Shown: positions 3,957-47,442 of the stretch, piece by piece
How the letters are laid out: each line of letters opens with the position of its first letter
How positions within the stretch are numbered: the first letter of the stretch is position 1
Assembly: GCA_017621705.1 (NCBI GenBank)
Contig: JAGASR010000036.1
Span: forward strand, 6,837-70,836
Source: Clostridia bacterium
GTDB taxonomy: Bacteria > Bacillota > Clostridia > Oscillospirales > UBA644
Length of the DNA: 64,000 bases
Direction of reading: 5' to 3'
Notes under the pieces: model-generated
What the model was told of the DNA's origin: nothing
The model's database searches: none
Seen by the model: only the letters and a program-made list of their open reading frames with translations
Made by a program: the position numbers and the translations under genes

Positions 3957-5342
3957 TTAATTTTCAGAGTGTTCAGCTTCGTACTGTTTGATAAACTCGT
4001 AGTTGGGAATTACGTATTTTTCCACATAAATATTCGAAGCATCCGCATGTTTTGCTGCAATTTCAGTACCTGATTTATTGCTTTTTGTAAGAGTTGTTGC
4101 TGTCCTGAAATAGTCGAAAACACCAAATGTGTAGTAGTTCCAACGAGAGTATTTAAGGTATGTTGTAAATAACTCAACATCTCGTTTATCATAAAATATT
4201 CCGGAGGCATATTCTTGTATGTCTTCTATCGTTTCATATCCTTCAAAGGGTTCAAACATACGGTCGAGCACAGTTGCCGCTGCTTCCGGTTCTTTCGCGT
4301 TGACCCAAATAGCCATACTGTCAAATCCTGAATATGCATTCGGATATTCTCCGTATGTTCCGCTGGGTCCCCATGGCATTGAAACTACACCGTAGTTTTT
4401 CGCTTCAAATATCATTTCATTTATCATATGGGAAAAAGATGTTTGTGCAAGAGTCAATGTTCCGTTGTTGAAAGCATCTACCATTTCATAATGACCAAGA
4501 AATGAGATTATATCTTTATGCTTTGCAAATAAATCAGAGCACCAGTCGAAAGTTTCTGTAATTTCGGGAGAGTCAAGTGCGGGAACGACAGTCCCATCGG
4601 AATTTACTTTTATGTAATCCGCACCGTTCATCATTGCAAAGTCTATGATATACCAAGTAAGGTTCATAGCTGTGGCAGTAAATTCACCGTCTTCTATTTG
4701 ATAGTCTGGAAGAACATTCTCAAATGTTTCCCATGTCCATTCGCCGTTTTCGACATATTCTCTGGGGTCTGTTTTGCCGTAACGAGAAATGATATCTTCG
4801 TTAACAGCAAAAATATTATAGGAGTATGCCATTTGTTTACCCGGCCATGAAACAGGAGATACTGTATACGGAACTCCCATATACATTCCCTGTTCTAAAA
4901 GACCGGGTGTTCCGAATTTATCCGCATTTGTATAGTCAAGAAAATCAATGAGGACATCTAACGGATAATACATTCCGGAGGCTGCATTGCCGTGAGGACT
5001 GTGTGTGCACGATATTTCACCAACATATAATCCGGCAATAATTCTGGCTGTTTCTGTTCCGTTTGTTTTATGCAAAGTAACATTGCAGTTTAATTCTGTC
5101 GATATGTCTTTAAGTCTTTGTAAGTACATATCTGCCATGAGAGTTCCCACTGGGTATTGAAACGGACGTTCAAGATCGTATTCCTGAAGAATAGTACATT
5201 CATATCCGTCAAGATCTACTCCGGAATATTCTCCGTTCGGAGCACTGAAATCAAGCAAGAATTCTTCTTCGGTCTGCTGCGAACAGGAACAGAAGCTGAA
5301 AACAAGAAGAAACAGTACAACAAAAGATATTATCTTTTTCAT
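3957..5342 (-). CDS. lipoprotein, solute-binding-protein-like, paralog 2 of 7
   Basis: ORF 3957..5384. Start moved to MKKIISFVVLFLLVFSFCSCSQ (ATG 5340-5342), 7 nt after GAGGG. Same motif set (YNIFAVNE, DPREYVENGEWTWETFE, MMNGADY, NAKEPEAAA, DRMFEPFEGYET, RWNYY). Confidence 0.85.
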   Translation of the reverse strand: MKKIISFVVLFLLVFSFCSCSQQTEEEFLLDFSAPNGEYSGVDLDGYECTILQEYDLERPFQYPVGTLMADMYLQRLKDISTELNCNVTLHKTNGTETARIIAGLYVGEISCTHSPHGNAASGMYYPLDVLIDFLDYTNADKFGTPGLLEQGMYMGVPYTVSPVSWPGKQMAYSYNIFAVNEDIISRYGKTDPREYVENGEWTWETFENVLPDYQIEDGEFTATAMNLTWYIIDFAMMNGADYIKVNSDGTVVPALDSPEITETFDWCSDLFAKHKDIISFLGHYEMVDAFNNGTLTLAQTSFSHMINEMIFEAKNYGVVSMPWGPSGTYGEYPNAYSGFDSMAIWVNAKEPEAAATVLDRMFEPFEGYETIEDIQEYASGIFYDKRDVELFTTYLKYSRWNYYTFGVFDYFRTATTLTKSNKSGTEIAAKHADASNIYVEKYVIPNYEFIKQYEAEHSEN

Positions 5343-5421
5343 AAATTTACCCTCATTCTTTTTTTTAAAATTATAAATAAACATATTGGATTGTTAACGT
5401 AAGCAACAGATAAAAAAAACT

Positions 5422-6140: not shown

Positions 6141-7517
6141 TTATTCATTAAAAGCTTTTTCGTATTGTAAAAAGAATTGATGATTCGGAATTATATATTC
6201 TTCAACCGATTGTTTTGCTTTTCCGAGATATTTTGAAAAGATCTCGGCAGAAGATCGACCTGATCCGGCATCCTCTGTTGCGGAATCAAAAAATTCGAGG
6301 AGATCGGCATTCGGTTCATAATTCCAACGGCTGTTTTTAAAGATCGAAAAGATGAGATCAATATCTCTGCTATCCGAAAAATATGTCCTGTAAAAATCTT
6401 TACGTAAATCCTCCGTCTCGTAATCTTCCCAGACATCGCAAAGGCGGTCAATAATTCTTGCCGATGCAACCGGTTTTTTCGCATTAACGAGAATTCCGAA
6501 GCATGTATTTTCGGAATAGGCGCTCACCCATTTGCCGTATTCACCATTCGGGCCGCAGGGCATGGGAACGATACCGATATTATCGGTATAGCCCATAAAC
6601 CGAATGACCTGATCTATGGAGGTCTGAGTCATAACGAGCTGATCGCCGAGGAATTTCGGAACCATTGTATCATGATCGTCAAAAGAAATGCAGCTTGAAT
6701 ATTGAGAAAAGACATCCGAGCACCAGTCGATAGTCTCGGTTATCTCAGGAGAATCGATTGCAGAGAAAGGTCTTCCTTCTCGAACGGTAACATAATCAGC
6801 GCCGTTCATCAACGCAAAATCGAGAATCGAATGGGTAATATTAACGGATTTTGCGCGGACAGAACCATCGTTGATAACATATTCCGGAAGAATACGTTCA
6901 AATGTATCCCATGTCCATTCGTGATTTTCAAGAAGATCACGGGGATCATCAAGACCGTAGCGTTTAACAAGATTTTCATTAACGGCAAAAATTCCATAAG
7001 AACCGATAGGTATTTGCTTGCCTGGCCATAAAGCGGGACTGACGGTATAAAGATTCCCGTCATATATGCCCTGTTCTAGAATTCCGTAAGCCCCGAATTT
7101 CTCGGAATTTGTATAGTCGATATAATCCTTCAGATCGTTAAGAGGGTGAAATGCGCCGACAGAAACAAGGTTTGACGATCCGATCATATATGCGATCTCG
7201 CAGACATAGCCGCCTGCCATAAGAGTCGGAAAGACAGAGCCGAGATTTTCGCTGCCGTCAATAACAATTTTTATGGAGCAATTCCAGTCGGCGGATATTT
7301 CGGCAATACGTGCTTTCATGATATCGGACTGCAGGTATCCAAAGCGTTCCTGCTCGGACTCGACGAGATCGGACTGCATAATGCTGAATTCATATCCGCC
7401 GAAATCCATAAGAGAATCGAGGCTTCCAGTCTCATAATCAATATCATTGTTCTGAGAACATGAGCATAAAATAAAAATGAATGCGGAAATCAAAACAAAA
7501 GAAATAATTTTTCTCAT
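6141..7517 (-). CDS. lipoprotein, solute-binding-protein-like, paralog 3 of 7
   Basis: ORF 6141..7565. Start is probably MRKIISFVLISAFIFILCSCSQ (ATG 7515-7517), or two codons earlier at 7523, after AAGGGG. Motifs FAVNENL, DPRDLLENHEWTWDTFE, LMNGADY, PMPCGPNGEYG, RWNY. Confidence 0.8.
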   Translation of the reverse strand: MRKIISFVLISAFIFILCSCSQNNDIDYETGSLDSLMDFGGYEFSIMQSDLVESEQERFGYLQSDIMKARIAEISADWNCSIKIVIDGSENLGSVFPTLMAGGYVCEIAYMIGSSNLVSVGAFHPLNDLKDYIDYTNSEKFGAYGILEQGIYDGNLYTVSPALWPGKQIPIGSYGIFAVNENLVKRYGLDDPRDLLENHEWTWDTFERILPEYVINDGSVRAKSVNITHSILDFALMNGADYVTVREGRPFSAIDSPEITETIDWCSDVFSQYSSCISFDDHDTMVPKFLGDQLVMTQTSIDQVIRFMGYTDNIGIVPMPCGPNGEYGKWVSAYSENTCFGILVNAKKPVASARIIDRLCDVWEDYETEDLRKDFYRTYFSDSRDIDLIFSIFKNSRWNYEPNADLLEFFDSATEDAGSGRSSAEIFSKYLGKAKQSVEEYIIPNHQFFLQYEKAFNE

Positions 7518-39737: not shown

Positions 39738-39768
39738 AAAACAGCCCTTTAAAAGGGCTGTTTTTTTA
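39738..39768. terminator. bidirectional terminator
   Basis: CAGCCC-tttaaaa-GGGCTG followed by TTTTTTT. It lies between the convergent MATE and DUF3021 genes. Confidence 0.7.
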
Positions 39769-40188
39769 CTTCAGATTTTCATTAAGTCGGCTTCCGAGAG
39801 TTCTGATGCAGATAAAAACCGTTATCCACACGATAAAATAAACGACAACAAATATGAGCGAAAAAATAAGAAGGACTGCAGGCTCGAAGGGGATCCATGA
39901 ATTGATTATATAACAAAGGCTATATGAAACATAAAGCGATAAAAAATGGACAAAAAGCGATTTTGCGATCGGCCAATGCTCGATCTGATTGAAAATACTG
40001 GCCCCCGCGTGGACGAATGCAAGAATATAAGTAGAAACGATACTCGTAAAAACATCCGTTCCGCTGAGACTGAAATCATCGAGTGTGAGATGTATGATCA
40101 AAAAAACGATGCCGCAAATTATCGGGCCGAAACCTCCGAACATCATACCTCTGATAAAAAATTCTTTCATATAACTGTTTTTTCTCAT
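39766..40188 (-). CDS. DUF3021-like small membrane protein
   Basis: 140 aa with 4 TM helices. ATGA overlap with the upstream LytTR gene. This pairing is characteristic of DUF3021. Confidence 0.65.
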   Translation of the reverse strand: MRKNSYMKEFFIRGMMFGGFGPIICGIVFLIIHLTLDDFSLSGTDVFTSIVSTYILAFVHAGASIFNQIEHWPIAKSLFVHFLSLYVSYSLCYIINSWIPFEPAVLLIFSLIFVVVYFIVWITVFICIRTLGSRLNENLK

Positions 40189-40622
40189 TTTAAACCTATC
40201 CTTTCTTTAACTCTTTTAACTTGACGACGGGAAACATAATCTTTATATCCGTTTTTTAATATTACGGTCAATGAGCCGCCGAGAGAAGCGCCGAACTTTG
40301 AAATTTTGCGGATATTGCAAAGACACGACTGATTGATCTTCACAAAATCAGCCGAAACGAGCTCTTCGATCTCATAAAGCCGTTGATTTATTCTGAATTT
40401 TCCGCTGTCCGTCAAAGCATAGATCTTGTTTTCTTCAACGATAAAACAATAAATTTCCGTTACGAAAAGCTTTACGGTATCGCGGTTTTCGTCATAGCCG
40501 AGAAGCTCCGTCTCGATATTTGAAATATACGATTCTATATCTTCGATCTGTTTTGTTCGCTGTTTTGCATAAATAAGTACTTTTTCTTCACATGAATTAT
40601 CTATGATCGTCTGAAATTTCAT
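40185..40622 (-). CDS. LytTR-family DNA-binding protein (no receiver domain)
   Basis: Start moved to MKFQTIIDN (ATG 40620-40622) after AAAGGAGGAAG. C-terminal LytTR pattern FVKINQSCLCNIRKI...LKNGYKDYVSRRQVKRVKE. Confidence 0.75.
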   Translation of the reverse strand: MKFQTIIDNSCEEKVLIYAKQRTKQIEDIESYISNIETELLGYDENRDTVKLFVTEIYCFIVEENKIYALTDSGKFRINQRLYEIEELVSADFVKINQSCLCNIRKISKFGASLGGSLTVILKNGYKDYVSRRQVKRVKERIGLK

Positions 40623-40749
40623 TTGTCTTCCTCCTTTGATAACAGTATACCACAACCGATTTTTTTGTCAACGGTTTCAGAGCGTTCGGTCAATTTGAAA
40701 ATGTAAGCGGTAAAATATCCGATTATTTCAAAAAAACAAAAAAGTTATA

Positions 40750-40778
40750 TTGACTTTTGATGATTGCTGTGATATAAT
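40750..40778 (+). promoter_or_regulatory. sigmaA-type promoter of the riboswitch-led operon
   Basis: TTGACT (40750-40755), 17 nt, TGaTATAAT (TATAAT 40773-40778). Confidence 0.7.
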
Positions 40779-40794
40779 TTCGTTGTTAATCAAA

Positions 40795-41052
40795 TATTGC
40801 AATACGGTTCGGGCGATGCCCGATAAGAGGGAAGTTCGGTGCAAATCCGTCGCAACTGCCATTACCGTAAAAGTCGGAAAACTCACCGTAAAAGCAAGGC
40901 AAGAAACATTTTTGGGCAAAGAAGAATGCAGCCGTTTCGGAATAACAGGATAGGTGTACCCTTTTATATCTTTGCTTCAAACTTTTGCCTGCAATTCAAT
41001 GAAACAGTTGCGTCTTCTTCGGTAAAAACGGAGAAAGACGCTTTTTTTGTTT
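40795..41052 (+). promoter_or_regulatory. cobalamin (B12) riboswitch with terminator-type expression platform
   Basis: Core strings AAGAGGGAAGTTCGGTGCAAATCCG, CGCAACTGCC and AAGTCGGAAAAC..CACCG, with possible P1 ACGGT (40804-40808) / ACCGT (40885-40889). Downstream hairpin GCGTCTTCTTC...GAGAAAGACGC plus TTTTTTT (about 41009-41048). Downstream genes encode DUF4430 and ECF proteins. Confidence 0.7.
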
Positions 41053-41066
41053 TGAAAGGAACGCAA

Positions 41067-41342
41067 ATGAGCGAGAAATTTGACAGGCAATCGTGTATAT
41101 CTCTGTTGAAAGAAAAGAAAAAAGAACTTGATGCCGCAGGCGATGACCGTTTTCCGAAAAGATCGGATTTTACGGAAGAACAGATCGTTGCGATCAAAGC
41201 GTTTCTGGGACCGTGGCCGAGAGCACTCGAGGAATCAGGCTTAAAGCAAGCCGACCCGAACAGAGAGACAGACAAAATGCAGAAAAGAATTGCGTTAAAA
41301 CGTAAAAAAACAGAGATCAAAAAGGTAAAAAAGGGCTCATGA
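41067..41342 (+). CDS. small basic protein, unknown function (possible homing-endonuclease-associated-repeat-like motif)
   Basis: The ORF 40839..41342 N-terminus lies in the riboswitch. Start moved to MSEKFDRQ (ATG 41067) after GAAAGGAA. Motif RFPKRSDFTEEQIVAIKAFLGPWPRALEESGLK and a K-rich tail. Confidence 0.55.
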   Translation: MSEKFDRQSCISLLKEKKKELDAAGDDRFPKRSDFTEEQIVAIKAFLGPWPRALEESGLKQADPNRETDKMQKRIALKRKKTEIKKVKKGS

Positions 41343-41398: not shown

Positions 41399-42184
41399 AT
41401 GAAAAAAATTATCAGAATTATGATCGTCTTGGCGATGCTCTTCACCCTTTGCGCTGTCCCGATGGCGGCACAAGGCGTTGAAGTCACGGTAACGATCGCA
41501 AACGGCGATATTATGGTTCACGACACAGTTTCCGTATCGGATGCTGACGGCGACGGTGTTATCTCCATTGCCGATGCTCTCTATGCGGCACACGAAGAAA
41601 ATTACGACGGCGGCGCAAGCGCAGGTTTCGGCACAGAAGATACCCAATGGGGCATCTCGCTCATGAAACTTTGGGGCGTTGAAAACGGCGGAAGCTACGG
41701 CTATCAGATAAACAACGGCAACCCGATGAGCCTTGCTGATCCCGTTAAAGACGGCGACTACGTTTACGCTTACGTTTATACCGATACCGTCGGTTTTTCC
41801 GATACTTACACTTTCTTTAACGAACTTACCGTTAAAGCCACAGAAGGTCAGTCCATTGATCTTACTCTTTCTGCCGCAGGTTACGATGAAAACTGGGCAC
41901 CGATAACTCTTCCCGTTGAAGGCGCAGTTATTACCGTTAACGGCGAAAAGACAGAATTTGTAACCGATGCAGAAGGTAAAGTTTCTGTCAAAATCGACGA
42001 AGCAGGCGAATACACAATCAGCGCTGTATCCGAGACCATGACTCTCGTTCCCCCTGTTTGCACTGCGACCGTTACGGCTGAGTCTAACCCCTCAACTTCC
42101 GACAGCGATATGATGATCTTTGCAGTCACCGCGATCGTTGCAATCGGCGCTGTCATGATGATAAGAAAAAAGGAATGTAAATGA
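41399..42184 (+). CDS. secreted DUF4430-domain protein with Ig-like domain and C-terminal TM anchor
   Basis: Signal peptide MKKIIRIMIVLAMLFTLCAVPMAAQG. DUF4430-like pattern VTVTIANGDIMV...ISIADALYAAH...YGYQINNGNPMSLADPVKDGDYVYAY. C-terminal MMIFAVTAIVAIGAVMMIRKK. Confidence 0.7.
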   Translation: MKKIIRIMIVLAMLFTLCAVPMAAQGVEVTVTIANGDIMVHDTVSVSDADGDGVISIADALYAAHEENYDGGASAGFGTEDTQWGISLMKLWGVENGGSYGYQINNGNPMSLADPVKDGDYVYAYVYTDTVGFSDTYTFFNELTVKATEGQSIDLTLSAAGYDENWAPITLPVEGAVITVNGEKTEFVTDAEGKVSVKIDEAGEYTISAVSETMTLVPPVCTATVTAESNPSTSDSDMMIFAVTAIVAIGAVMMIRKKECK

Positions 42185-43842
42185 GAAATAAGATAATATC
42201 CGTTATTTTAGCGGTAATTTTTATCTGCGCATCACTCGGAATATCTACATTTGCTCAAATGAATACCGTCGGGGAGATCAATGATCTCCTCGACGATATT
42301 GTTGCTTTTAACCTTAACAAAGAAAACGAGAATGATACGCTTAAATGGCTCGCAAGCGGCGCGGGAAACGGAACCGAATTTTACGCAATTGCATTTTCAC
42401 AGAGGATCCCAGAATCTTCTCCGAGTTCGAGATACGATCTTTCGGATTTTGCGAAAGCAATGGAGAAGTTTCTTGACGAAAACGAAGTAAAAAATGCGGT
42501 AACAAAGCAGAAATACGCACTTTCGCTTATTGCGTCGGGCAAGGAAGACTCAAAATACGTTAACGAAATAACTAATTCAACGATCGGCGAGCTCGGAATA
42601 ATGAGCTTCGTTTTCGGTCTTCATCTTTTGAATAACGGTGCGGTTAGCGAAACACATACTGTCGAGACTGTTACAGACAAGCTTCTTTCTCTTCAGCTTG
42701 AAGACGGCGGATGGGCTTTGACGGGACAGTATTCGGACGTTGATATAACGGCGATGACCGTTCAGGCTCTTGCTCCGCACAGAGAAACGAATGATGAGAT
42801 TTCTGCGGCAATCGACAAAGCGATAGCGACGTTATCTCAAAAACAGTTTGACGACGGTGATTTTGCAAGTTACGGTGTTGCAAATCCGGACAGCGTAGCA
42901 CAGGTCATGATAGCTTTAACGTCTGTCGGTATAGATCCGTTAAGCGATGAAAGATTTATAAAAAACGAAAAAACGGTTCTTGACGGCATAAAAAAATATA
43001 TGCTCGAAGACGGAAGTTTCAAGCATACCGAAGACGGCGAATCAAACTACATGGCGACATACCAGGTTTTTCTCGGACTTACGGCGCTGAACAGATTTTA
43101 CGCAGACAAGGGTTCCCTTTTCATCTTTGAAGAGGAAGAGGAACCTATTATCACAGAAGATCCCGTTGAAAACGAACCGGAAAAAGAAGAAACCGTTGAA
43201 CAAAAAGAACCTGAAAAAATTGAGGAAGATATCCCCGAAGAGCCGCCTGTCAAAGACATTGTAAATATAAAGAGCGGCGGATACAAGCTTTGGGTAAGCG
43301 TGGCGGTGGCAGGAATTGCCGTTATTCTGATGATAATATGCGTCATCAAAAAGCAAAAAACAGGCACTTTTATTTTGATCGCGGCAGCGGCGACGTTGGT
43401 TATATGCATAGTATTTTTTACTGATATTCAGACGGCTGACAACTACTACTCGGCGGTCCCCGAAAAAGGTGAAACGGTCGGCACTGTTACAATGCAGATC
43501 CGTTGCGATAAGATCAAAGATCAGCAAGCGGATCATATTCCCGAAGACGGCGTAATCCTTGATACGACTGAATTTGCGATCGATTCGGACGACACGGTCT
43601 ACGATATCCTTACAGAGGCGGCAAGGAAATATACTTTACACCTTGAAAGCACCGGCGGTGACGGAATGAAATATATGTCCGGTATCAATTATATTTATGA
43701 ACTTGCATACGGCGATCTTTCGGGATGGGTTTATCTTGTCAACGGAGAAAGACCGTCTGTCGGATGCGATGCATACAAATTAAGCGACGGAGACGTCATT
43801 GAGTGGCACTACTCGCTCGAACTCGGCAACGATATTGACTGA
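42181..43842 (+). CDS. membrane protein with alpha/alpha-toroid (prenyltransferase/squalene-oxidase-repeat) domain, acidic linker, TM hairpin and C-terminal DUF4430 domain (transcobalamin-like architecture)
   Basis: Signal/anchor MRNKIISVILAVIFICASLGISTFA. Repeats LQLEDGGWA, KQFDDGDFA, MLEDGSFKH. E-rich linker, then two TM helices (YKLWVSVAVAGIAVILMIICVI, FILIAAAATLVICIVFF). C-terminal TVYDILTEAARKY...SGINYIYELAYGDLSGWVYLVNGERPSVGCDAYKLSDGDVIEWHYS is a strong DUF4430 pattern. Confidence 0.75.
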   Translation: MRNKIISVILAVIFICASLGISTFAQMNTVGEINDLLDDIVAFNLNKENENDTLKWLASGAGNGTEFYAIAFSQRIPESSPSSRYDLSDFAKAMEKFLDENEVKNAVTKQKYALSLIASGKEDSKYVNEITNSTIGELGIMSFVFGLHLLNNGAVSETHTVETVTDKLLSLQLEDGGWALTGQYSDVDITAMTVQALAPHRETNDEISAAIDKAIATLSQKQFDDGDFASYGVANPDSVAQVMIALTSVGIDPLSDERFIKNEKTVLDGIKKYMLEDGSFKHTEDGESNYMATYQVFLGLTALNRFYADKGSLFIFEEEEEPIITEDPVENEPEKEETVEQKEPEKIEEDIPEEPPVKDIVNIKSGGYKLWVSVAVAGIAVILMIICVIKKQKTGTFILIAAAATLVICIVFFTDIQTADNYYSAVPEKGETVGTVTMQIRCDKIKDQQADHIPEDGVILDTTEFAIDSDDTVYDILTEAARKYTLHLESTGGDGMKYMSGINYIYELAYGDLSGWVYLVNGERPSVGCDAYKLSDGDVIEWHYSLELGNDID

Positions 43843-43875
43843 TTTTACGTAAAACAAATGAAAGGAGGAACAGAT

Positions 43876-44754
43876 ATGAAAGCTTTTGACGGATATAATC
43901 CGATCGCAGTCTTTATTTATTATGCGGCGGTTGTGAGCGTTGGAATGTTCTGCATGAACCCGTGGATTATCGGATTTTCACTCGTCGGCGCGCTTGTGAC
44001 GTTCTTTATCCGCAACAAACTTTCGGGCGCAAAATCGCATTTGTTCTTCCTTTTAATGTTTGCCGTGATGGTAATAATAAACCCTCTTTTCAATCATAAC
44101 GGCGTTACGGTTTTGCTCGTAATAAACGATAATCCGATAACCCTAGAAGCGATAATTTACGGCATAGCATCGGGCGCAATGATAATCGGAATAATCTACT
44201 GGTTCCGCTCATTTTCGCAGATAATGACGAGTGATAAACTGCTTTATCTGCTCGGAAGCATCTCTCCGAAATTTGCGCTGATCCTTTCGATGACACTTAG
44301 GTATATTCCCCTTTTCGAAAAGCAGACACAAAAAGTCGTACATGCACAGCAAGCTTTAGGCCTTTACAGAGATGATGATTTTCTCAGCAAGATCAGAGGA
44401 GGAATAAGGGTCTTTTCGGTAATGGTAACATGGGTTCTGGAAAACGGAGTGATAACCTCGGACAGCATGACGGCACGCGGTTACGGAATTACGAAACGCA
44501 CACATTTTTCGATTTTCAAATTCAGAAGGCATGATATTATTTTAACGGTAACGACGGTGATCCTTTTCGCCGTAATGCTTCCTACGCTGATAACGGGCGC
44601 AATAAATTTTGAATACTATCCGAAGATCGTCGGAGAAGAAACAACGGTCTTTTCGGTACTCGCATATATTTCATACGGAATTCTGGCATTTTTACCGACT
44701 ATAACGGAAGCGGAGGAGAAGATAAGATGGAAATACTTAAAATCGAAGATCTGA
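43876..44754 (+). CDS. ECF transporter transmembrane (T) component, CbiQ family
   Basis: Start moved to ATG 43876 after AAAGGAGG. Polytopic. C-terminal ARG-type coupling motif SDSMTARGYG. Confidence 0.8.
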   Translation: MKAFDGYNPIAVFIYYAAVVSVGMFCMNPWIIGFSLVGALVTFFIRNKLSGAKSHLFFLLMFAVMVIINPLFNHNGVTVLLVINDNPITLEAIIYGIASGAMIIGIIYWFRSFSQIMTSDKLLYLLGSISPKFALILSMTLRYIPLFEKQTQKVVHAQQALGLYRDDDFLSKIRGGIRVFSVMVTWVLENGVITSDSMTARGYGITKRTHFSIFKFRRHDIILTVTTVILFAVMLPTLITGAINFEYYPKIVGEETTVFSVLAYISYGILAFLPTITEAEEKIRWKYLKSKI

Positions 44755-46361
44755 GCTTTTCATACCCGCTTTGCGAGAAAAAAGCGCTGAAAAATATTTC
44801 TTTTACGGTAGAGCGCGGAGATTTTGTGACTGTTTGCGGCGCCACGGGAAGCGGTAAATCGACCCTTATGCGTATGCTCAAAAAAGAGCTCATACCGCTC
44901 GGCGAATTGACGGGTAAAGTATACTATAAAGGCAAAGACCTTGACACATTAAGCGAAAAAGAGACGACGTGTTCGATCGGATTTGTAGCACAGCGACCCG
45001 AAGAGCAGATCGTTACGGATAAAGTCTGGCACGAACTTGCGTTCGGTCTTGAAAATATGGGACTGCCGAAAGACGTTATAAGAAGACGTGTTTCGGAAAT
45101 GACATGTTATTTCGGAATAGAGGACTGGTTCGAAAAGAGCGTAAACGAGCTTTCGGGCGGTCAGAAGCAGCTATTGAACCTCGCATCCGTAATGGTCATG
45201 CAGCCCGATATCTTGATTCTGGACGAACCGACAGCACAGCTTGACCCGATTGCGGCATCGGACTTTATCGCAACGCTTTCAAAGTTAAACAGAGATCTTT
45301 CGCTGACGGTCGTTATTACCGAACACAGACTCGAAGACGTCATCCCCGCCGGAAACAAGCTCCTTGCAATGGAAAACGGAGAGATCGTCAAATACGGAGA
45401 AACGAGATCGGCAATCAGCGCGCTTTACGGCAACAAAACGCTTATCGAAGGCATGCCCGCGGCTGTTAGGATCTTCAATAATTTCGAGATCAACACCCCC
45501 TGCCCTCTTACGGTCAGGGAAGGACGCGATTTTATCGAAAAGAATTTCAGCAACGAAATTCGGTCTGCAGACAAAAAAGAGCAGAAAAACGAGAAAAAAG
45601 ATGCCGTTCTTGAATTTTCGGACGTTTATTTCAGATACGAACGCGATCTTCCGGATATTCTTCGCGGACTTGACTTTACCGTATACGAAAACGAGATATT
45701 CTGCATCCTCGGAGGCAATGGGTCGGGTAAATCGACGAGCCTTTCCGCGGCGGCAGGCATCAATAAGCCGTATTCCGGAAATATAAAGGTTTTCGGTAAG
45801 AAGATAAAGGATTATAAAAACGGAGATCTTTATAAAAACTGTCTGTCTCTTTTGCCGCAGGACGTTCAGACCGTATTTTTAAAGAATACGGTAAAAGAGG
45901 AGCTTGCGGATGTGAATATGGACACATCGGATCTTCCGTATGACCTTTCCGAGCTTAACGAGAGACATCCCTACGATATTTCGGGCGGACAGCAGCAACT
46001 TCTTGCGCTTGCGAAAGTGCTTTCGACGAAGCCGAAACTTCTGCTTCTGGACGAGCCGACAAAAGGTCTCGATGCTTATGCGAAAAAGTCGATAATGGAC
46101 GTACTCAAAAAGCTCCGCGCCCTCGGAATGACGATCGTTTGCGTAACGCACGACGTTGAATTTGCGGCAGACTGCGCAGACAGATGCGCAATGTTTTTCA
46201 GAGGAGAGATAACATCGTGCTCTTCCCCGAAAGAATTTTTCTCCGGCAACAGTTTTTACACTACTGCGGCAAACAGAATGACGCGCGGTTATTACGGCGG
46301 AGTGACGACGGTTGCGGATGCCGTTGAAATAATGAAAAAGAACGGAGCGGCGACGAAATGA
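44727..46361 (+). CDS. ECF transporter ATPase, fused EcfA1-EcfA2
   Basis: Two Walker A motifs (GATGSGKST, GGNGSGKST), two signatures (LSGGQKQ, ISGGQQQ) and two Walker B motifs (LILDEPT, LLLDEPT). 28-nt overlap with the T gene. Confidence 0.9.
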   Translation: MEILKIEDLSFSYPLCEKKALKNISFTVERGDFVTVCGATGSGKSTLMRMLKKELIPLGELTGKVYYKGKDLDTLSEKETTCSIGFVAQRPEEQIVTDKVWHELAFGLENMGLPKDVIRRRVSEMTCYFGIEDWFEKSVNELSGGQKQLLNLASVMVMQPDILILDEPTAQLDPIAASDFIATLSKLNRDLSLTVVITEHRLEDVIPAGNKLLAMENGEIVKYGETRSAISALYGNKTLIEGMPAAVRIFNNFEINTPCPLTVREGRDFIEKNFSNEIRSADKKEQKNEKKDAVLEFSDVYFRYERDLPDILRGLDFTVYENEIFCILGGNGSGKSTSLSAAAGINKPYSGNIKVFGKKIKDYKNGDLYKNCLSLLPQDVQTVFLKNTVKEELADVNMDTSDLPYDLSELNERHPYDISGGQQQLLALAKVLSTKPKLLLLDEPTKGLDAYAKKSIMDVLKKLRALGMTIVCVTHDVEFAADCADRCAMFFRGEITSCSSPKEFFSGNSFYTTAANRMTRGYYGGVTTVADAVEIMKKNGAATK

Positions 46362-47044
46362 TAACGATAAAAAATGCCGCTCTTCGAAAAGTTTTAAAAA
46401 TAATCATTCCGTTTTTGCTTGTACCTTTGGCGCTTGCGATCGGAATATTCGTCCTTGAAGAAAAAAGTTACACTTTCATCAGCATTGCGGTAAGTATTCT
46501 TGCTCTCGTTCTTTTCATAAGCGGTTTTGAGAAGAAAAAGACGGGCACTCGCAGGCTGGTTATCGTTGCGGTCATGACGGCGCTTTCGGTCGTCGGAAGA
46601 TTTATTCCGCTGTTTAAACCGATAACTGCGCTTACAGTCATAACAGCGGTCTATATCGGCGGCGAGGCAGGATTTCTCGTCGGTGCGATGTCTGCGTTGG
46701 TTTCAAATTTCTGGTTCGGCCAGGGACCGTGGACACCTTTTCAGATGTTTGCATGGGGAATGATCGGTCTTATAGGCGGCCTTCTTTCAAAATATCTGAA
46801 AAAAAGTCATGCTCTTCTGATAATATACGGTGTGTTTTCAGGAATCGTTTACTCGTTTGTAATGGACTTATGGGCAGTGCTTTGGCATAACGATGTTCTG
46901 ACTGCGGAAATCTACATTGCGGCGCTCGTAACGGCGATACCGTATACGGTAATCTATTCCGTTTCAAACATGATTTTCTTTGCCCTGCTAGCAAAACCGT
47001 TCGGAGAGAAATTGGAAAGAGTAAAGTTGAAGTACGGAGTGTAA
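46358..47044 (+). CDS. ECF transporter substrate-specific (S) component, candidate corrinoid-specific
   Basis: 228 aa with about 6 TM helices. ATGA overlap with the ATPase gene. Last gene of the riboswitch-led operon. Confidence 0.7.
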   Translation: MITIKNAALRKVLKIIIPFLLVPLALAIGIFVLEEKSYTFISIAVSILALVLFISGFEKKKTGTRRLVIVAVMTALSVVGRFIPLFKPITALTVITAVYIGGEAGFLVGAMSALVSNFWFGQGPWTPFQMFAWGMIGLIGGLLSKYLKKSHALLIIYGVFSGIVYSFVMDLWAVLWHNDVLTAEIYIAALVTAIPYTVIYSVSNMIFFALLAKPFGEKLERVKLKYGV

Positions 47045-47094: not shown

Positions 47095-47412
47095 TTATTC
47101 TAAACAAATATGTCTGTTGCTACTGACGATCTCAATTTGAATATCTTTTTCGAAAGATGATTCGTAGTGTTTAAATCGTCTCAAAATCGATATCATTTTT
47201 TCTGCTGCATCTTCGAATTCACGTTCAATAACATCAAGACCGATAATTTCGATGAAAATCGGTTCACCATACATATCTGTCAGGCAATCCCAAAACGCAT
47301 CCCAATTACAACCGTAATAATCGGGAAAATCCAACGATACCTGAATAATCTTATGCATCTCCATATAATATTTAACATTGCTGAAATTGATCGTATATTT
47401 CTTTTGACTCAT
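47095..47412 (-). CDS. barstar-family (barnase inhibitor) immunity protein, orphan
   Basis: The motif LDFPDYYGCNWDAFWDCLTD matches the barstar-family signature (fPdYyG.NlDAlwDcLtd). Start is at the second ATG (47410-47412) or the first (47413-47415), after AGGAGAG. Confidence 0.75.
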   Translation of the reverse strand: MSQKKYTINFSNVKYYMEMHKIIQVSLDFPDYYGCNWDAFWDCLTDMYGEPIFIEIIGLDVIEREFEDAAEKMISILRRFKHYESSFEKDIQIEIVSSNRHICLE

Positions 47413-47442
47413 CATACTCTCCTAAGGTATATTGGTTAACAG

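Follow-up and report, generated by a model that had tools for sequence, protein, structure and literature searches.

The 64,000-nucleotide (nt) stretch of DNA analysed here (the window; contig JAGASR010000036.1 of a Clostridia bacterium, positions 6,837 to 70,836) carries a gene for a transcobalamin-like protein of 553 amino acids (aa), which lies at 42181..43842 on the forward strand, as do all the operon features described below, and which probably serves in the capture of corrinoids at the cell surface. The gene was delineated from the list of open reading frames and characterized by Pfam, by an AlphaFold2 (AF2) model and by Foldseek. It is the third of six genes in a tight operon, where genes for a 91-aa protein and a 261-aa protein precede it, and genes for the EcfT, fused EcfA-A' and CbrT-like S-component proteins of an energy-coupling factor (ECF) transporter follow it, with gene overlaps of 4 and 28 nt. 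The database name of its family is only “DUF4430 domain-containing protein”. A preliminary description of this DNA had already given the same coordinates, strand and length, and each feature that it listed in the protein was recovered in its place.

In order, the protein consists of a signal peptide, an alpha/alpha toroid of ~290 aa, a Glu-rich disordered linker, a two-helix membrane hairpin and a DUF4430 domain. Its AF2 model, built on an alignment of 65 relatives (A1) that is also the basis of our family profile, has a mean predicted local distance difference test score (pLDDT) of 86.9, while hydropathy delimits three hydrophobic segments (aa 3–25, 369–392 and 394–416). The first of these belongs to a signal peptide or N-terminal anchor (aa 1–26, i.e., MRNK, a hydrophobic core and STFA/Q; 42181..42258), modelled as a helix at aa 2–19 followed by residues of low confidence (aa 20–27). 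The full layout is repeated in all 118 full-length homologues that served for the hairpin statistics given below, and this recurrence is far beyond chance.

The N-terminal domain (aa ~28–320; 42262..43140) was assigned to the alpha/alpha toroids from AF2, Foldseek and profile searches. The preliminary description had recognized in it repeats of the form (Q/L)xxDG(G/D/S)(W/F), and these are indeed conserved among the 65 relatives (D175-G176-G177-W178, G226 and D277-G278-S279-F280). With Pfam, Prenyltrans just missed its cut-off (aa 144–297: 23.2 bits for a cut-off of 26.5; E-value 5e-5) and SQHop_cyclase_C reached an E-value of 2.7e-4, so that the assignment, below the Pfam threshold for this protein itself, rests on the family profile and the predicted structure. 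Across the family, at E ≤ 1, SQHop_cyclase_C was matched by 54 of the 65 relatives (best E-value 1.2e-7) and Prenyltrans by 41 (best 2.1e-8), while the profile searched against PDB sequences retrieved class II terpene synthases and squalene-hopene cyclase (1e-9 to 7e-7), with drimenyl diphosphate synthase at 1e-9, through alignments that run along the DGGW-type repeats. The expectation that the domain would fold as an alpha/alpha toroid is thus borne out by these profile matches, by an all-helical AF2 domain (13 helices, pLDDT mostly above 90) and by toroid matches in Foldseek. The family also conserves a motif, D186-V-D188-[V/I/A]189-T-A, reminiscent of the DxDDTA of cyclases; at least 62 of the 65 relatives have V, I or A at position 189, where Asp does not figure in the four commonest residues. 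An enzymatic role as a terpene cyclase was considered and dropped, owing to this degenerate DxDD motif and to the operon context.

At the other end of the protein, the beta-grasp domain of the DUF4430/SLBB type (aa ~430–553; 43468..43839), identified by Pfam, AF2 and Foldseek, is the counterpart of the transcobalamin beta domain. It had been called a textbook DUF4430, and PF14478 does match aa 470–545 with an E-value of 1.9e-16 (60.7 bits for a cut-off of 23.8), as well as each of the 65 relatives. In the AF2 model, its elements succeed one another as beta-beta-alpha-(beta hairpin)-beta-beta, and Foldseek aligns it with 3U7Z, a DUF4430 protein of Ruminococcus gnavus, at a template modelling (TM) score of 0.68. 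DUF4430 is known as the C-terminal domain of TCN proteins (PMC4350170). Within this domain, two cysteines stand out, C442 (nt 43504–43506), which is invariant, and C529 (nt 43765–43767), which 62 of the 65 relatives possess; a disulfide between them is conceivable, and so is a role for one of them as a cobalt ligand, as in BtuM.

When the whole AF2 model was compared with the PDB using Foldseek, ranks 1 to 15 were all occupied by transcobalamin, intrinsic factor or haptocorrin (E-values 1.7e-8 to 1.9e-6; target-normalised TM scores 0.57–0.66), in alignments of ~550 columns that extend across both domains. The next ranks were drimenyl diphosphate synthases, other terpene cyclases and prenyltransferases, all of them aligned over the toroid only (~280 columns). 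Hence, the idea that both halves of transcobalamin are present in one bacterial protein agrees with the predicted toroid and beta-grasp domains and with the identity of the best 15 structural matches. Sequence searches of the PDB, either with the family profile at E ≤ 1 or with the beta domain alone, returned no transcobalamin or DUF4430 chain, and the link with transcobalamin therefore rests on the Pfam DUF4430 match and on structure.

The two domains are joined by an acidic tether rich in Glu, Pro and Thr (aa ~321–366; 43141..43278), whose disorder is indicated by the AF2 model (pLDDT below 50 at aa 329–365) and by its composition across homologues (16% E, 13% T, 9% S and 8% D). It is of variable length, as the homologues span 510 to 660 aa. 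The tether leads into a transmembrane hairpin (aa 367–414; 43279..43422), recognized from hydropathy, AF2 and the homologues, in which a first transmembrane helix (TM1), a KKQKTGT loop and a second helix (TM2) are followed by a conserved T-D-[FI]-Q end. The helices, at aa 368–389 and 394–413 in the model (pLDDT ~94), have ~20 hydrophobic residues each and a mean hydropathy of about 3.0. All 118 homologues possess the hairpin, with the general pattern YKxW, TM1, basic loop (e.g., KKRNKKN), TM2 and TDFQSADDYY. Apart from their hydrophobicity, the residues within the membrane are weakly conserved; TM2 is followed by a conserved juxtamembrane motif, T-D-F-Q-S-A-D-D-Y-Y.

In these same homologues, the loop has 3–10 residues (median 7) and a mean net charge of +4 (minimum +2), while the 15 residues C-terminal to TM2 have a mean charge of −2.3. 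According to the positive-inside rule, a basic loop with an acidic flank after TM2 implies that the loop is cytoplasmic and that both domains are extracytoplasmic. This bias, found in 118 out of 118 homologues, favours the outward orientation of both domains proposed in the preliminary description, and a topology with the domains on opposite sides of the membrane was not encountered. Together with the N-terminal signal, it indicates that the protein should be located at the cell surface. The hairpin would most simply have arisen by the fusion of an alpha protein having a C-terminal anchor and a basic stop-transfer tail with a beta protein having a basic n-region and an N-terminal signal-anchor. 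A search for genuine split forms, i.e., beta-only homologues with an N-terminal anchor, gave only fragments and miscalled genes, of which one (P0275) still carries both transmembrane helices. In the absence of split forms among close relatives, we infer the fusion from the split operon of Lactobacillus sakei (L. sakei), to which we return below.

Upstream of the operon lies a leader with the predicted elements of a cobalamin-responsive switch. A sigma-70-type promoter-like site (TTGACT-17-TATAAT with an extended −10; 40750..40778; match at 11 of 12 positions) ends 10 nt before a compact, class-II-like cobalamin riboswitch aptamer (40789..40904), which was detected with RF00174 at 28.5 bits (E-value 4.2e-5 in 1.1 kb). 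The alignment covers the full span of the model and includes the B12-box core, without the peripheral extension of ~70 nt. A search of the whole window with Rfam at the gathering threshold yielded nothing, and the riboswitch emerged only in E-value mode. Beyond the aptamer, a stem-loop followed by a U-tract (41010..41055), identified from sequence and folding, is a probable intrinsic terminator under riboswitch control; its predicted stability is −20.7 kcal/mol (z = −3.5), a value attained by none of 200 shuffled sequences. Conservation of the operon was counted in 80 related loci and riboswitches were examined in 23 of them, among which 14 have a Cobalamin or AdoCbl-II riboswitch upstream, on the operon strand and above the Rfam gathering threshold. 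A sub-threshold AdoCbl-II match was obtained in L002 (4663–4738). Compact riboswitches devoid of the peripheral extension are frequent in this operon family (in the window, and in L014 at 4896–4971, L016 at 2924–2999, L026 at 866–945 and L002), and some riboswitches of the family score better as AdoCbl-II (RF01689) than as RF00174. As several, including that of the window, fall just below the gathering scores, threshold-based annotation will miss them.

The last three genes of the operon encode an ECF transporter. The transmembrane coupling component EcfT, of the CbiQ family (43858..44754), matches PF02361 at 28 bits (cut-off 25); the fused EcfA-EcfA' ATPase (44727..46361) matches ABC_tran twice (E-value 1.8e-55) and ECF_ATPase_1 at 326.9 bits (cut-off 315); and the CbrT-like S-component (46358..47044) matches PF07155 with an E-value of 1.7e-12. 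The best solved relative of the latter is 6fnp_A (E-value 5.8e-10 over aa 60–227, i.e., nearly its full length). The entry 6FNP corresponds to ECF-CbrT, an importer of vitamin B12 (B12) and cobinamide in Lactobacillus delbrueckii (L. delbrueckii), with which hemin does not compete for cobalamin uptake (PMC5997447).

Between the leader and the transcobalamin-like gene, two further genes appear to be regular members of the system. The first operon gene (41067..41342), studied by tblastn and Pfam, encodes a 91-aa protein with a basic C-terminal tail and without signal peptide, and this product is, as far as its sequence allows us to predict, a small cytoplasmic protein. Its sole family match is a weak one to Pfam HNH_repeat (E-value 1.3e-4), and comparison with PDB sequences gave no meaningful match (E-values of at least 0.04). 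According to tblastn, the gene occurs in at least 49 of the 80 loci, always first after the riboswitch position, even in rearranged operons. The second operon gene (41399..42184), analysed by AF2 and conservation, encodes a 261-aa surface protein composed of a signal peptide, an alpha/beta domain of ~105 aa, an immunoglobulin-like (Ig-like) domain resembling CarboxypepD_reg and a C-terminal membrane anchor, the latter being replaced by LPXTG or a dockerin in some homologues. Its stop codon overlaps the start of the transcobalamin-like gene (ATGA), and it adjoins a homologue of that gene in 75 of the 80 loci. In the AF2 model of this partner (pLDDT 88.6), the secondary-structure elements of the N-terminal domain follow the same order as in DUF4430, and the domain features an invariant DxDxDG loop (D48–D59) similar to that of EF-hands and dockerins. 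This N-terminal domain has no Pfam family, and a Pfam scan of the individual members gave no DUF4430 match. When hhalign was used to ask whether the partner is a second SLBB/DUF4430 protein, neither full-length single sequences nor profiles gave a link: with full-length profiles only the signal peptides aligned, and restriction to the domains reached a probability of 3.8%. Foldseek, run on the model of the partner, returned Ig-like matches only, due to the second domain.

The transcobalamin-like family is large and mostly travels with its transporter. A scan limited to one genome for each species found a relative in at least 572 genomes; among the matches listed, the hosts are nearly all gut or rumen Clostridia (Oscillospiraceae, Lachnospiraceae, Ruminococcus, Acutalibacteraceae and Christensenella), and the closest relative (85%) comes from a metagenome-assembled genome of Oscillospiraceae. 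An exhaustive profile search recovered 15,069 cluster representatives (at 50% identity) at E ≤ 1e-3, including 4,559 at E ≤ 1e-30; the best 150 of the 15,069 have E-values below 1e-178 and nearly all match most of the profile. The preliminary description had considered the combination of domains to be unusual, an opinion that a family of this size does not sustain. The EcfT, EcfA-A' and CbrT genes lie downstream, in the gene order of the window, in about 60 of the 80 loci and upstream in about 8, which makes about 68 linked loci, whereas about 5 loci have no ECF genes within their flanks. In the alternative order, the transporter genes come ahead of those for the 261-aa and transcobalamin-like proteins (L008, L022, L035, L048 and L054, and partly L051 and L079), showing that the transporter genes and the surface-protein genes each move as one block. 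Where it was detected in such rearranged loci, the leader stays in front (the riboswitch in L008; the 91-aa gene in L008, L035 and L048).

The genes flanking the operon in the window are unrelated to it: a MATE efflux protein, a LytTR/DUF3021 pair, a barstar and a GH3 glycosidase. The LytTR/DUF3021 pair (39766..40655, reverse strand) consists of two overlapping genes, one for a LytTR DNA-binding protein (156 aa) and the other for a DUF3021 membrane protein (140 aa); it is divergent from the promoter of the B12 operon and just upstream of it. The gene of the barstar family (barnase inhibitor; 47095..47415, reverse strand; E-value 1.4e-19) is directly downstream of the operon.

Altogether, the transcobalamin-like fold, the hairpin topology and an operon context featuring a B12 riboswitch and a CbrT-like S-component support the interpretation of the protein as a corrinoid clamp. 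We consider it probable, with good though not full confidence, that it is an extracytoplasmic corrinoid-capture protein, which has the two-domain build of transcobalamin and serves the ECF-CbrT-type B12 importer encoded in its own operon. Such a system might work as follows. When B12 is scarce, the riboswitch would let transcription read through the terminator, and the protein would be inserted with its basic loop in the cytoplasm and both the toroid and the beta domain outside. The beta domain would be held about 15–20 residues from the membrane, behind the TDFQSADDYY segment, while the toroid would be kept on an acidic leash of variable length (45 to more than 100 residues). To judge from the fold, the two domains may close around the corrinoid as in transcobalamin; to judge from operon linkage, the clamp, anchored beside the transporter, may then pass its ligand to the CbrT-like S-component, for import by the EcfT/EcfA-A' module at the expense of ATP. 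The 261-aa protein, translationally coupled to the clamp, probably cooperates with it in capturing the ligand or handing it over.

Several observations weigh against this interpretation. ECF transporters are, to our knowledge, generally considered to operate without extracytoplasmic binding proteins, and for this reason the hand-over to CbrT is a step that we infer; departing from that general rule, two predicted extracytoplasmic proteins are conserved in the present ECF operon. Structural alignments with the animal carriers have an identity of 10–13% and a root-mean-square deviation of 6–15 Å, which makes a shared architecture clear but does not fix the domain orientation or the ligand contacts. 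At the sequence level, the toroid resembles terpene cyclases and prenyltransferases, not the Pfam family Cobalamin_bind (PF01122), which has no match to the protein at E ≤ 1 and does not appear among the 25 families that most of the 65 relatives match at this threshold. As for regulation, the riboswitch of the window scores 3 bits below the Rfam gathering score (31.5), and one related locus (L069) has no riboswitch match in the 1.4 kb that were searched (4000–5400). Moreover, full-text literature searches found no experimental study of the family, and a study of L. sakei assigns the uptake of heme, not B12, to a related operon (bioRxiv 10.1101/864751).

The latter study opens the possibility that the clamp and its ECF transporter import a tetrapyrrole that is not a corrin, such as heme, following the proposal made for the proteins Lsa1840 and Lsa1839. 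Its authors docked heme into a modelled alpha/beta heterodimer and built a deletion mutant of the ECF operon to test heme uptake (bioRxiv 10.1101/864751). Nevertheless, B12-class riboswitches precede the operon both here and in 14 of the 23 related loci, and the S-component is closest to CbrT, for which hemin is not a competitor (PMC5997447), so that we regard a heme substrate as improbable in the present case. A somewhat different objection is that the protein might bind B12 without feeding the transporter, either as a surface store, as a means of competitive sequestration (B12 piracy) or as a sensor, the hairpin being a mere anchor. The weak conservation of the residues within the membrane, which points to no particular docking surface there, is in line with this idea, as are the ability of the L. 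delbrueckii ECF-CbrT to work without such a partner (PMC5997447) and the handful of loci (about 5 of 80) lacking ECF genes in their flanks. On the other hand, strict linkage with the transporter genes, closely spaced or overlapping, holds in about 68 of the 80 loci, expression under B12 limitation fits acquisition, and the T-D-F-Q-S-A-D-D-Y-Y motif after TM2 is conserved; a role divorced from transport is thus unlikely in our opinion.

Two other explanations would question the clamp itself. If the resemblance with transcobalamin were architectural only, the toroid could be an extracytoplasmic enzyme or a module binding glycans or isoprenoids, and DUF4430 could bind some other ligand. Sequence profiles do match class II terpene synthases and squalene-hopene cyclase rather than transcobalamin, and the D-V-D-x-T-A motif does recall the DxDDTA of cyclases. 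Yet, at least 62 of the 65 relatives have V, I or A instead of the third Asp of DxDD, the protein contains one toroid only (~290 aa), which lies outside the membrane, and full-length structural matches to B12 carriers outrank all cyclases in an operon context that is specific to B12, all of which makes this explanation very hard to maintain. Alternatively, the hydrophobic helices might not form a membrane hairpin, or DUF4430 might be cytoplasmic, and no clamp would form. The topology is indeed a prediction based on hydropathy, charge bias and the AF2 model. However, separating the domains would require an odd number of spans between them, while two hydrophobic helices of ~20 residues around a short loop rich in Lys and Arg are found in 118 of 118 homologues and are modelled as a helical hairpin at a pLDDT of ~94; we therefore give such a topology hardly any credence.

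Returning to the corrinoid-capture interpretation, it can be extended into a bolder and more doubtful proposal, which we put forward tentatively and which is, in our view, possible rather than likely: the ECF-CbrT system of gut and rumen Clostridia would be assisted by binding proteins, in the form of a fusion clamp stitched by a membrane hairpin and of its 261-aa partner, together handing the corrinoid to the S-component, and this lineage would be the source of the animal carriers. If the clamp does feed ECF-CbrT, this would provide a clear case of an ECF transporter that uses an extracytoplasmic binding protein, in breach of the rule; and if the extended proposal is true, it would identify the living bacterial lineage that gave animals transcobalamin, intrinsic factor and haptocorrin. 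Members of gut and rumen communities compete for B12 and related cobamides, and B12 acquisition, well studied in Bacteroides (BtuB, BtuG and BtuH), is less known for Firmicutes (PMC8941943). Being very widespread in Oscillospiraceae, Lachnospiraceae, Ruminococcus and their relatives, the family described here is the obvious candidate for their surface capture step, and the preference of such clamps for particular cobamides could influence which corrinoids go to which bacteria. The family is also an amenable bacterial model in which to study the transcobalamin fold and the bacterial origin proposed for the animal carriers. For a specialist, the general conclusion will be unsurprising and of moderate interest; its value lies in putting the idea to experiment and in the components of the system noted here for the first time.

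Regarding known systems, the suggestion of the preliminary description that a prokaryotic relative of the B12 carriers had come to light was anticipated by Burroughs, Balaji, Iyer and Aravind, who in 2007 defined the SLBB superfamily and described bacterial fusions of SLBB and alpha/alpha toroid domains in either order (PMC1796856). These proteins have signal peptides and Gram-positive anchors, they are encoded in operons with a second SLBB protein, CbiO and CbiQ, and their host genomes lack B12 synthesis; the authors inferred B12 scavenging and a bacterial origin of the animal carriers (PMC1796856). The protein of the window shares with them a signal peptide, a low-GC Gram-positive host, genes for a CbiO-like ATPase, a CbiQ-like membrane protein and another extracytoplasmic protein in its operon, a proposed role in B12 scavenging and, with their Desulfotomaculum example, a toroid that is N-terminal to SLBB/DUF4430. 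The second operon protein of the 2007 systems is a paralogous SLBB protein. The 261-aa partner may or may not be its equivalent, its N-terminal domain having the DUF4430 order of elements but no DUF4430 similarity by profile or Pfam. The text of the article (PMC1796856), as far as it was read, makes no mention of an interdomain transmembrane hairpin, of riboswitch control, of a CbrT-like S-component, of the 91-aa gene or of the 261-aa partner. Likewise, our literature searches found no description of an obligatory interdomain transmembrane hairpin, of a constant 261-aa partner or of a 91-aa first gene, nor any explicit tie of the family to a CbrT-type S-component and class-II-like riboswitches. 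Consequently, the type of protein is known from the 2007 prediction, and the hairpin tether, the partner protein and the small first gene are newly noted.

The lsa1836-1840 operon of L. sakei offers the closest parallel to a split form, as it features EcfT, a fused EcfA-A' and an S-component (Lsa1836-1838, ECF-like) beside transcobalamin-like modules, namely the alpha-like Lsa1840 and the beta-like Lsa1839, both predicted to be exported (bioRxiv 10.1101/864751). There, each half is a protein in its own right and carries an export signal, whereas the protein studied here is one chain passing through the membrane; in addition, the substrate was assigned as heme in L. sakei, whereas the riboswitch and the similarity to CbrT point to B12 in the present operon. 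The preprint had already remarked that the ECF system would then have extracytoplasmic binding proteins (bioRxiv 10.1101/864751). In Ruminococcus gnavus, RUMGNA_00854 (PDB 3U7Z) has the beta-grasp domain in common with our protein, from which it differs in being a single domain of 96 residues, annotated as putative metal-binding, without toroid or hairpin. Class II terpene cyclases and the beta subunits of protein prenyltransferases share the sequence similarity of the toroid repeats, but the former have the intact DxDD general-acid motif that our family lacks.

At the functional level, surface capture of B12 has analogues in gut anaerobes with another cell envelope. BtuG of Bacteroides is a surface-exposed B12-binding accessory protein of BtuB systems. 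BtuH, also of Bacteroides, similarly captures B12 at the surface and is encoded in riboswitch-controlled transport loci (PMC8941943). Unlike the protein of the window, both are Gram-negative outer-membrane lipoproteins of unrelated folds (beta-propeller; Ig-like or other) that work with a TonB-dependent transporter. Finally, transcobalamin, intrinsic factor and haptocorrin (PDB 2BB5, 2PMV and 4KKI) combine an N-terminal alpha/alpha barrel and a C-terminal DUF4430 domain in the same order as our protein, and they are extracellular corrinoid binders that deliver their ligand to a membrane uptake system, as the clostridial protein is proposed to do. The mammalian carriers are soluble, with a short flexible linker where our protein has an acidic tether and a membrane hairpin, and they deliver to endocytic receptors, whereas the proposed recipient in Clostridia is an ECF transporter.

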